A DNA stretch of 36,503 nt from a virus (taxonomy: Duplodnaviria > Heunggongvirae > Uroviricota > Caudoviricetes), in IMG/VR virus record IMGVR_UViG_2713896908_000012, positions 1 to 36,503 of that record, one strand, 5' to 3'. A program made the translations under genes and the position numbers. This document shows, piece after piece, positions 28,522-29,458 of the stretch. The notes below the pieces were generated by a model. That model worked only from the letters and a program-made list of their open reading frames with translations, did no database searches and was not told where the DNA came from. How positions within the stretch are numbered: position 1 is the stretch's first letter; every line of letters starts with the position of its first letter.

Positions 28522-28884
28522 ATGAACGAAACAGAATTAAAACACGTTATCGCTCTGCTTCTGGAGGATGCAAAGCGCCTCCAGCAGCTGGAACCAAATG
28601 CAGGCACTGAAGAACGAATTATTATGGCTAATAAAAGTCTACATTCTGCATATGATACAAATACAAAGCAAACAGATAAAAATATTATTGTTTATGGGCA
28701 CAGCGTTAACAGAGAATTTGCTTACTTTGTTCTGGAAAAATATCAACCTACATTTTGCCGGATAATAGAAGAACTAACATTAAAAGGCAAAGATAAAGAG
28801 TTTGTTGAAAATGCTGTGGCAACGGCAAGCGCAGCAGCCGTTGCCAGTATCAAATCAATGATTACTCTAGCGATTAACCAATAA
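28522..28884 (+). CDS. Hypothetical protein, AT-rich accessory gene at the sieB-equivalent position
   Basis: 120-aa ORF from ATG 28522 (MNETELKHVIALLLEDAKRLQQLEP...); AT-rich codon usage; not membrane-like; no motif I recognise. Confidence 0.5.
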   Translation: MNETELKHVIALLLEDAKRLQQLEPNAGTEERIIMANKSLHSAYDTNTKQTDKNIIVYGHSVNREFAYFVLEKYQPTFCRIIEELTLKGKDKEFVENAVATASAAAVASIKSMITLAINQ

Positions 28885-29224
28885 ACCCAGGGGGGATATC
28901 ACGCTGAGGCGGGTTAAGAAGCTCGGCAAACTACGCTCTCAGGCGTTGAACTTCTGAAATAAAATCGGCTTCACTGCAATCCCAGCCTTTGGGGTGCTTA
29001 AGTCGCAAATATTCAAAAACTAACGAATCAATTTCATTCATATTGGATAGCACAATTATTCTCCTTACTGGTTGTGTGGGAACTCCAGTATACCACCGAG
29101 CCTGAAGTGGTAAAAAGACAGGCGCACAACACGAAGGCGCATTTCCGGTATCCATAAAGAGTCGGTCTTGTCTGTTAAATTTAAATGGTGGGAGTGCGCC
29201 TCCGGTTGTAAATAACGACATTGC

Positions 29225-29284
29225 TGTGTGTAGTCCTGGCGGCATCAGTTTTTTCTTGAAGTTTGGCTGATGTCCGCCCTTTTT
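29225..29284 (+). ncRNA. Candidate DicF-like small RNA ending in an intrinsic terminator
   Basis: Sequence ...CCUGGCGGCAUCAGUUUUUUCUUGAAGUUUGGCUGAUGUCCGCCCUUUUU: extended stem GGCGGCAUCAG/CUGAUG(U)CCGCC followed by U5; the GGCGG(U/C)AUCAGUUUU...CCGCCCUUUUU pattern resembles DicF as I recall it. 5' end undetermined. Confidence 0.4.
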
Positions 29285-29458
29285 AAAGTGAATTTTGTGA
29301 TGCGGTGAATGCGGCTAAGCGCACGCGGAACAGTTAAAGCTAAAAACAGTGTTATGGGTGGATTCTCTGTATCCGGCGTTAATTGTTAACTGGTTAACGT
29401 CACCTGGAGGCACCAGGCACCGCATCGACAAAATTCATTTGTAAAAATGGAGATAATT

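Follow-up and report, generated by a model that had tools for sequence, protein, structure and literature searches.

The locus described here lies within a 36,503-nt stretch of DNA from a caudoviricete virus (IMG/VR record IMGVR_UViG_2713896908_000012; hereafter the window), the gene order of which on the + strand is that of a Rac-type lambdoid prophage. From the letters of this DNA, a model had described, between positions 28522 and 29446, an AT-rich 120-aa gene followed by about 560 bp that lacked a long open reading frame (ORF) and contained a hairpin RNA resembling DicF, upstream of the FtsZ inhibitor gene kilR (hereafter the original prediction). Our analysis shows that this hairpin forms the Rho-independent terminator of a small RNA (sRNA), the window's copy of KilS, located in the 5′ untranslated region (UTR) of kilR. 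The RNA core of the feature is already known and annotated as KilS, and is not a new DicF-like division inhibitor. KilS and its immediate surroundings comprise the following elements:

29173-29181, + strand: candidate extended -10 element, TGtTAAATT, read by eye, ending 7 nt before the KilS 5′ end
29188-29284, + strand: KilS sRNA, ortholog of Escherichia coli K-12 b4833, from pairwise alignment and fold
29210-29235, + strand: RprA-like seed in a single-stranded linker, AAAUAACGACAUUGCUGUGUGUAGUC
29238-29284, + strand: KilS intrinsic terminator (stem-loop 29238-29279, U-run 29280-29284)
29285-29446, + strand: structured kilR leader, STnc100-like and shared with dicB leaders, with a closing stem of ~22 bp
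29459-29680, + strand: kilR, encoding a 73-aa FtsZ inhibitor (NCBIfam NF008465; RefSeq annotation of near-identical loci)
Downstream of kilR, + strand: ydaE, racC, then a recE-like gene (30301-33447)

The hairpin arms, GGCGGCAUCAG and CUGAUGUCCGCC, together with the UUUUU tract that follows them, occupy exactly 29238-29284, where the original prediction had placed a stem plus U-run, and the terminator loop includes CUUGAAGUUUGGCUGAUGUCCGC. The prediction was also right in placing the hairpin upstream of kilR, the identity of which is confirmed by NCBIfam NF008465 (157 bits over 73 of 73 positions; gene start, 29459); a Pfam scan gave no match for KilR, and an ATG at 29447 lies in frame with the gene, 4 codons upstream of the 29459 start. 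In the RefSeq annotation of K-12, the non-coding RNA (ncRNA) gene kilS (b4833, "small RNA KilS") occupies 1,418,405-1,418,502, between sieB and kilR. End-to-end alignment of the 97 nt at 29188-29284 with K-12 kilS revealed one 1-nt indel and one substitution, both of which fall within the terminator loop, and in the 60 nt that precede KilS a single base separates the window from K-12. From the 3′ end of KilS it is 175 nt to the start of kilR, and kilR is followed by ydaE, racC and recE. The 97-nt RNA is predicted to fold with an energy of -35.0 kcal/mol (z = -3.6), which was equalled by 0 of 200 shuffled sequences. A promoter and terminator scanner did not report the KilS terminator, the loop of which is above the 8-nt limit of that program. 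KilS of K-12 was predicted from Hfq RNA interaction by ligation and sequencing (RIL-seq) data and confirmed by northern blotting (Bar et al. 2021, PMC8175672). It was classed as a 5′-UTR-derived sRNA and judged to be transcribable from its own promoter, its start was mapped to 1,418,502 and an RNase E site to 1,418,471, i.e. nt 32 of the RNA, and its RIL-seq partner was yncL (PMC8175672 and its supplement).

Directly 5′ of its terminator, KilS carries a sequence that is nearly identical to one found in the same position in RprA, a core-genome sRNA under Rcs control. KilS nt 23-48 (29210-29235) and K-12 RprA nt 51-75 align with a single gap and share 24 of the 25 aligned bases, and the alignment score of 40 exceeds the maximum of 24 that was reached in 500 shuffles. 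The exact 16-mer AUUGCUGUGUGUAGUC at 29220-29235 occurs once in the window, where 0.01 occurrences would be expected. The likeness is confined to these 25 nt. RprA is a full three-hairpin RNA from the ydiK-ydiL locus, whereas KilS derives from a prophage locus; RprA possesses a different terminator, and its central region for rpoS, hdeD and narP is missing from KilS. The Rfam RprA model (RF00034) gave a partial match of 25.5 bits (E = 2.8), which did not reach the threshold of 70.

The two RNAs are also alike in having an RNase E site just before the matched stretch and in sharing yncL as a partner. Processed RprA consists of the last 47 nt of RprA and begins at the sequence that is matched by KilS (PMC9262595), and the RNase E site mapped in K-12 KilS, at nt 32 and immediately 5′ of CAUUGCUG, falls at window position 29219. 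yncL is among the RprA targets that are common to RIL-seq and TRIC-seq (bioRxiv 10.1101/2025.09.11.675593), and UGUGUGUAGU plus CAUUGC, which are common to KilS and RprA, can pair with ACUAUACACA...GCAAUG in the yncL 5′ UTR. Over 19 distinct KilS variants the 16-nt seed is invariant or nearly so, while nearby positions vary. From these sequence relationships, we infer that KilS would act through its RprA-type seed, and that the label of a DicF-type ftsZ repressor probably suits it less well than that of a prophage-borne RNA which shares the RprA seed and has a DicF-type scaffold. What we regard as modestly new is the seed, processing site and partner that KilS has in common with RprA, the modular family of seeds, loops and genes described below, and a third copy of the seed in prophage e14.

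Two probes were used in the published KilS northern blots, of which probe 1 covers the terminator loop and arm and is specific for KilS, and probe 2 covers the seed (PMC8175672). The sequence of probe 2 (AGGACTACACACAGCAATGTCGTTATTTAC, PMC8175672 supplement) is complementary to the stretch common to KilS and RprA, and on this complementarity cross-hybridisation with RprA, an RNA of similar size, would be expected. We considered whether the KilS northern signals or the KilS-yncL chimeras might be mis-assigned RprA, and rejected this for KilS itself because probe 1 is terminator-specific.

The resemblance to DicF of the Qin prophage, which the original prediction had pointed out, was evaluated by aligning the window with the Rac and Qin prophages of K-12, strain 155 and phage Rac-SA53. 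Part of this resemblance is real homology. KilS and DicF have in common the base of the terminator, GGCGG(Y)AUCAGUUUU...CCGCCC-UUUUU, and the ~165 nt that follow the terminator, up to the kilR or dicB ribosome-binding site, are nearly identical between Rac and Qin. Both RNAs accordingly precede a structured leader and a division-inhibitor gene, and both lie at an early-left operon position after ydaF/ydfA-type (DUF1391) genes. Upstream of the terminator, the Qin and Rac sequences are unrelated. DicF further differs from KilS in that its 5′ end arises from RNase E processing of the operon transcript, while KilS has its own start in K-12 (PMC5069750, PMC8175672), and in that dicB rather than kilR lies downstream. 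KilS and DicF are paralogues that share one scaffold and precede different FtsZ inhibitor genes.

The remainder of the resemblance did not hold. DicF was not reported when the whole window was searched against Rfam at the gathering threshold. In a permissive search of 1.3 kb, the DicF covariance model (RF00039) matched 29225-29279 with 37.6 bits (E = 2.7e-6), under its gathering score of 48. DicF is known to pair through its 3′ region with ftsZ and pykA and through its 5′ end with xylR (Balasubramanian et al. 2016, PMC5069750), and both of these regions have been replaced in KilS: the ftsZ-pairing 3′ region ACUCCGUGACUGCUCUG is UUCUUGAAGUUUGGCUGAUGU in KilS, with differences in the loop and the 3′ arm, and the 5′ seed for xylR, UUUCUGGUGACG, is exchanged for AACGACAUUGCUGUGUGUAGUCC. 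Unrestricted duplex folding of the whole RNAs produced long, meaningless duplexes, and the test was therefore restricted to the single-stranded linker or the terminator against positions -80 to +30 of each target, with shuffled controls; it is a crude test that does not model accessibility. The KilS linker paired with ftsZ no better than expected (253 of 500 shuffles paired at least as well), and neither did the terminator region (284 of 500), so that the predicted pairing with ftsZ mRNA lay at the shuffle mean. In the same test, DicF ranked in the top 8% (41 of 500 shuffles at least as good). The parallel that had been drawn with dicF-dicB stands for the ancestry and layout of the locus, but neither for membership of the DicF family nor for the proposed ftsZ mechanism.

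Between KilS and kilR lies a leader (29285-29446) that is predicted to form a multi-branch structure that is closed by a ~22-bp stem (-61.2 kcal/mol, z = -6.3). The Rfam STnc100 model (RF02076) matched 29281-29466 over its full length with 39.5 bits, without reaching the threshold of 47. The kilR leader shares the closing stem and a CACCUGGAGGCACCAGG hairpin with the STnc100/PasD prophage sRNAs, although those RNAs end in a seed and terminator, whereas the leader ends in the kilR ribosome-binding site. Among 62 distinct leaders, the flanks were conserved and the central hairpin was variable; support from covariation is weak because the changes in the closing stem involve wobble pairs or bulges only. 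Processing of dicBF by RNase III yields a 72-nt DicF that is 19 nt longer than the terminated form (PMC5069750), which places the RNase III cut at the start of the closing stem. By analogy with dicBF, RNase III is likely to cut at the closing stem of the kilR leader as well. When NusG is lowered, kilR is expressed via transcriptional read-through (PMC5793797). Because kilR is toxic and expressed in this way, the terminator and the strongly folded leader that stand between the promoter and kilR are suggested to gate this gene in cis.

The arrangement of seed, terminator, leader and division-inhibitor gene recurs with exchanged parts. A search of IMG/VR with the exact 26-mer that spans the terminator-leader junction recovered 120 stretches, 107 of which were usable. 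These 107 loci contained seeds of four kinds (DicF type, RprA-like, CCAUGUGUAGU and CAUGUUGAUU) and terminator loops of four kinds (DicF ACUCCGUG, KilS CUUGAAGU and two others), and the downstream gene was DicB-like, KilR-like or of a third family with proteins starting MLNVAIENQ. The DicF seed and DicF loop preceded DicB-like genes in ~60 loci, the RprA-like seed and KilS loop preceded kilR in 20 loci, and a few recombinants of seed, loop and downstream gene were found. A scan for UGCUGUGUGUAGUC-Y-UGGCGG in one genome per species yielded 29 loci in two groups. One group comprises KilS-type copies in Escherichia, Shigella and Citrobacter braakii. In the other, the seed-plus-terminator unit lies in another context, in Citrobacter, Scandinavium, Superficieibacter, Enterobacter, Raoultella and Klebsiella, and in five further genera, Pseudocitrobacter, Mixta, Erwinia, Izhakiella and Buttiauxella. 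None of the 29 loci matched an Rfam family at threshold. We rejected the idea that the loci in other genera are native rprA genes, as their flanks are prophage-like and unlike those of rprA, and there was no Rfam RprA match.

K-12 itself carries an element of this type in e14 (NC_000913.3, about 1,201,192-1,201,413, minus strand), inside the annotated ORF ymfH. Here, the UGCUGUGUGUAGUC seed is fused to a GGCGG...CCGCCC-U5 terminator, with an STnc100-like structured domain in front. Of 5426 complete E. coli genomes, 1793 contain the element, and its Rfam scores, 29.2 bits for STnc100 and 28.5 bits for DicF, are both sub-threshold. The K-12 annotation shows no ncRNA at this position; ymfH is among the unverified sRNA predictions of Bar et al. 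(PMC8175672). It is conceivable, at somewhat less than even chances, that KilS is one product of a modular prophage sRNA toolkit with a seed copied from RprA, and that K-12 carries three RNAs with this one seed; no statement to this effect was present in the papers that were searched. A common terminator scaffold and leader would let lambdoid prophages swap seeds, loops and division-inhibitor genes by recombination and, if this idea is correct, the copied RprA seed would give Rac-type prophages a means of acting on some members of the RprA regulon, or of competing for them.

Upstream of KilS, the window contains the following features, of which the 120-aa gene was the other part of the original prediction:

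27498-27917, + strand: repressor-like gene
28219-28353, + strand: YdaG-like ORF of 44 aa
Ending at 28520, + strand: YdaF/DUF1391 ORF
28522-28884, + strand: 120-aa ORF, a two-module accessory protein (ATG at 28522, stop at 28882-28884)
28885-29446: gap of 562 bp after the 120-aa ORF
29053-28931, - strand: YdiH-like small ORF, convergent with the 120-aa gene, 40 codons here
29087-29114, - strand: sigma-70 promoter-like site from a consensus scan (TTTACC, 16 nt, TATACT, with an upstream TG)

The 120-aa ORF is indeed AT-rich (37.5% G+C versus 46.6% for the window), and 120-nt windows in the middle of the ORF fall to 31-34%. An alternative GTG start at 28513 would give a protein of 123 aa, and the ATG is preceded, at a distance of 6 nt, by a Shine-Dalgarno-like AGGTGA. 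Pfam and NCBIfam returned nothing or noise-level matches for the protein, and PHROGs families of unknown function matched it at residues 1-47 only. There are ~14 full-length homologs of 45-99% identity in E. coli, Salmonella and Enterobacter, all of which are labelled hypothetical. Many small prophage proteins with unrelated C-termini share the first ~33 residues (ELKHVIALLLEDAKRLQQxEPNAGTExRI) almost without change, and the N-terminal module (28522-28660, ~45 codons) also exists by itself in proteins of 42-70 aa. An exhaustive profile search revealed that the modules at profile positions 1-45 and about 57-135 each stand alone elsewhere, but yielded no annotated relative; among the small proteins that carry either module alone, none has a Pfam domain. 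An AlphaFold (AF2) model of moderate quality (pLDDT 76, pTM 0.43) predicts a helical hairpin for the N-terminal ~45 aa and a beta-hairpin with two helices for the C-terminal ~65 aa. Foldseek comparison of the model with the PDB and BFVD found nothing at E < 0.01 except a 42-aa phage protein that corresponds to the N-terminal module alone. Our best guess is that the protein is a small, soluble, early accessory factor that acts by binding another protein.

In the RefSeq annotation of strain 155 (NZ_CP018237.1), only the first 40 codons of this ORF are recognized, as an "incomplete" pseudogene. The DNA of strain 155 is the same as that of the window over the whole 120-aa ORF, apart from one substitution in codon 3, and the truncation appears to be an annotation artefact.

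The ~560 bp that follow were described as devoid of a long ORF, which is correct for the + strand, where there is none of note; the minus strand holds a conserved small gene that had gone unnoticed in the original prediction. In strain 155, the annotated 59-aa protein WP_001502430.1 corresponds to 29053 down to about 28874, and a TAG at 28931-28933 in the window (GAG in strain 155) cuts this YdiH-like ORF from 59 to 40 codons. The promoter-like site at 29114-29087 faces the gene, and its sequence is kept in an Enterobacter locus. Homologs of the YdiH-like protein are located next to members of the 120-aa family in Enterobacter (64% identity, convergent, though not called as a gene there), in Salmonella (49%) and on another contig (46%). 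The last of these matches Pfam YdiH (PF15930) with 29.5 bits against a cut-off of 27, while the 59-aa E. coli form gives no match. Because the homologs are convergent with the 120-aa family in these three other loci, the two genes evidently travel together. The left joint of the cassette lies inside the 120-aa ORF, past the conserved N-terminal module, and the right joint, at ~29062, falls on the minus-strand gene's ribosome-binding site, beyond which thousands of E. coli genomes match the window. The whole cassette is present in 9 of 5426 complete E. coli genomes. The corresponding slot is occupied by sieB in K-12 Rac and by rac10/rac11 in Rac-SA53. The K-12 KilS locus has sieB upstream, on the opposite strand, where the window has the 120-aa gene and a truncated YdiH-like gene. 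The original prediction correctly recognized that the 120-aa protein occupies the sieB slot and is unrelated to K-12 SieB (BLASTP E = 0.31). Because sieB of K-12 lies on the strand opposite to kilR, however, its positional counterpart is the minus-strand YdiH-like gene and not the 120-aa ORF. We infer that the 120-aa and YdiH-like genes constitute a separate, swappable accessory cassette in the sieB slot.

Considered as a whole, the locus is with good probability explained by a KilS ortholog of dicF-dicB ancestry, which provides termination in cis and RprA-type pairing in trans, next to a separate accessory cassette. In cis, most transcripts that start at the KilS promoter or come in from the early-left genes upstream would end at the KilS terminator without reaching kilR, a toxic gene, the expression of which would therefore need read-through. 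In trans, KilS would base-pair with host mRNAs via the single-stranded linker just upstream of the terminator, a sequence that would have been copied from the 3′ seed of RprA in the core genome. Regulation of yncL would depend on UGUGUGUAG of KilS, and RNase E, by cutting at nt 32, would release the seed in a product that mirrors processed RprA. Several observations weigh against this explanation. The start site, Hfq association and detection of the RNA are K-12 data that were carried over to the window, and the TGtTAAATT promoter element was read by eye and not reported by a consensus scanner. In the minimum-energy fold of full-length KilS, the seed is partly paired with the 5′ end. The KilS-yncL duplex (-19.9 kcal/mol) is only mildly better than its controls, 44 of 500 shuffles being as good. 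In the original study, K-12 KilS took part in few RIL-seq interactions and received a low sRNA score (PMC8175672), and its role in trans could therefore be minor. Finally, a literature search of limited reach found no paper linking KilS to RprA or DicF.

The scarcity of interactions also favors another explanation, in which the hairpin does no more than guard kilR in cis, as a terminator or attenuator, and the short RNA is a by-product with no role in trans. The location of the hairpin within the 5′ UTR of a toxic gene that is known to be controlled by termination and read-through (PMC5793797) fits this idea. We nevertheless consider it unlikely, as KilS of K-12 has its own mapped start and was recovered with Hfq (PMC8175672), its seed has been kept nearly invariant while neighbouring positions vary, the unit of seed and terminator also occurs in unrelated prophage contexts across the Enterobacterales, and yncL, the sole reported partner, is also a target of RprA, which shares the seed. 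A far less probable role for KilS is that of a functional DicF equivalent, which would repress ftsZ translation by an antisense mechanism and block division jointly with KilR, as DicF does with DicB. The homologous locus architecture and common terminator base, the sub-threshold match to the DicF family and the few natural recombinants that combine an RprA-like seed with a DicF-type loop are in keeping with such a role and, by eye, the KilS loop AGUUUUUUCUUG could pair with the ftsZ ribosome-binding region, albeit weakly and with many wobble pairs. Nevertheless, the covariance score falls short of the Rfam threshold, the ftsZ-pairing region of DicF has been replaced, the duplex energies of KilS with ftsZ do not stand out from shuffled controls as those of DicF do, and the reported partners of KilS do not include ftsZ (PMC8175672).

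The original prediction further proposed the 120-aa protein as an exclusion or defence factor and, in this vein, the protein might replace SieB in superinfection exclusion or anti-phage defence, alone or together with the YdiH-like gene. This proposal draws on the variable slot that it shares with sieB of K-12 Rac, the AT-richness of the gene against its flanks, the rarity of the cassette and the minus-strand partner with its own promoter-like site, as is often the case for accessory genes expressed in lysogens. We regard it as rather improbable. Neither the 120-aa protein nor the minus-strand ORF matched PADLOC-DB 2.0 at E <= 1, nor did the YdaG- and YdaF-like proteins, and as described above neither Pfam, NCBIfam nor structural comparison assigned the 120-aa protein to a family or known fold. 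Moreover, the protein bears no likeness to SieB and has no clear membrane segment (top 19-residue hydropathy 1.49), the partner gene is interrupted by a premature stop in the window, and position in a variable slot is by itself weak evidence. The analysis is of immediate use for labelling: the RNA is KilS and not a new DicF-like inhibitor, and its position does not by itself make the 120-aa ORF a defence candidate. KilS, DicF and RprA, three RNAs that are usually treated apart, are also linked by the comparison. If the shared seed has a function, the Rcs/RprA envelope-stress circuit of the host could be exploited or buffered by cryptic prophages, and phenotypes and interactome reads that have been attributed to RprA could be partly confounded by prophage copies.

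Elsewhere in the window, the YdaG-like 44-aa protein matched the UBA-like Pfam family UBA_4 with 23.4 bits, barely over the cut-off of 21.8. At gathering thresholds, Rfam reported only RalA and sok in the whole window, and nothing at the hairpin region. RalA, the antitoxin sRNA of the Rac RalR/RalA type I toxin-antitoxin pair, was matched over its full length at 34769-34947 on the minus strand (202.8 bits; threshold, 170). The sok family was also matched over its full length on the minus strand, at 22126-22278 (119.3 bits; threshold, 59), which implies the presence of a hok/sok-type type I toxin-antitoxin locus within the prophage.

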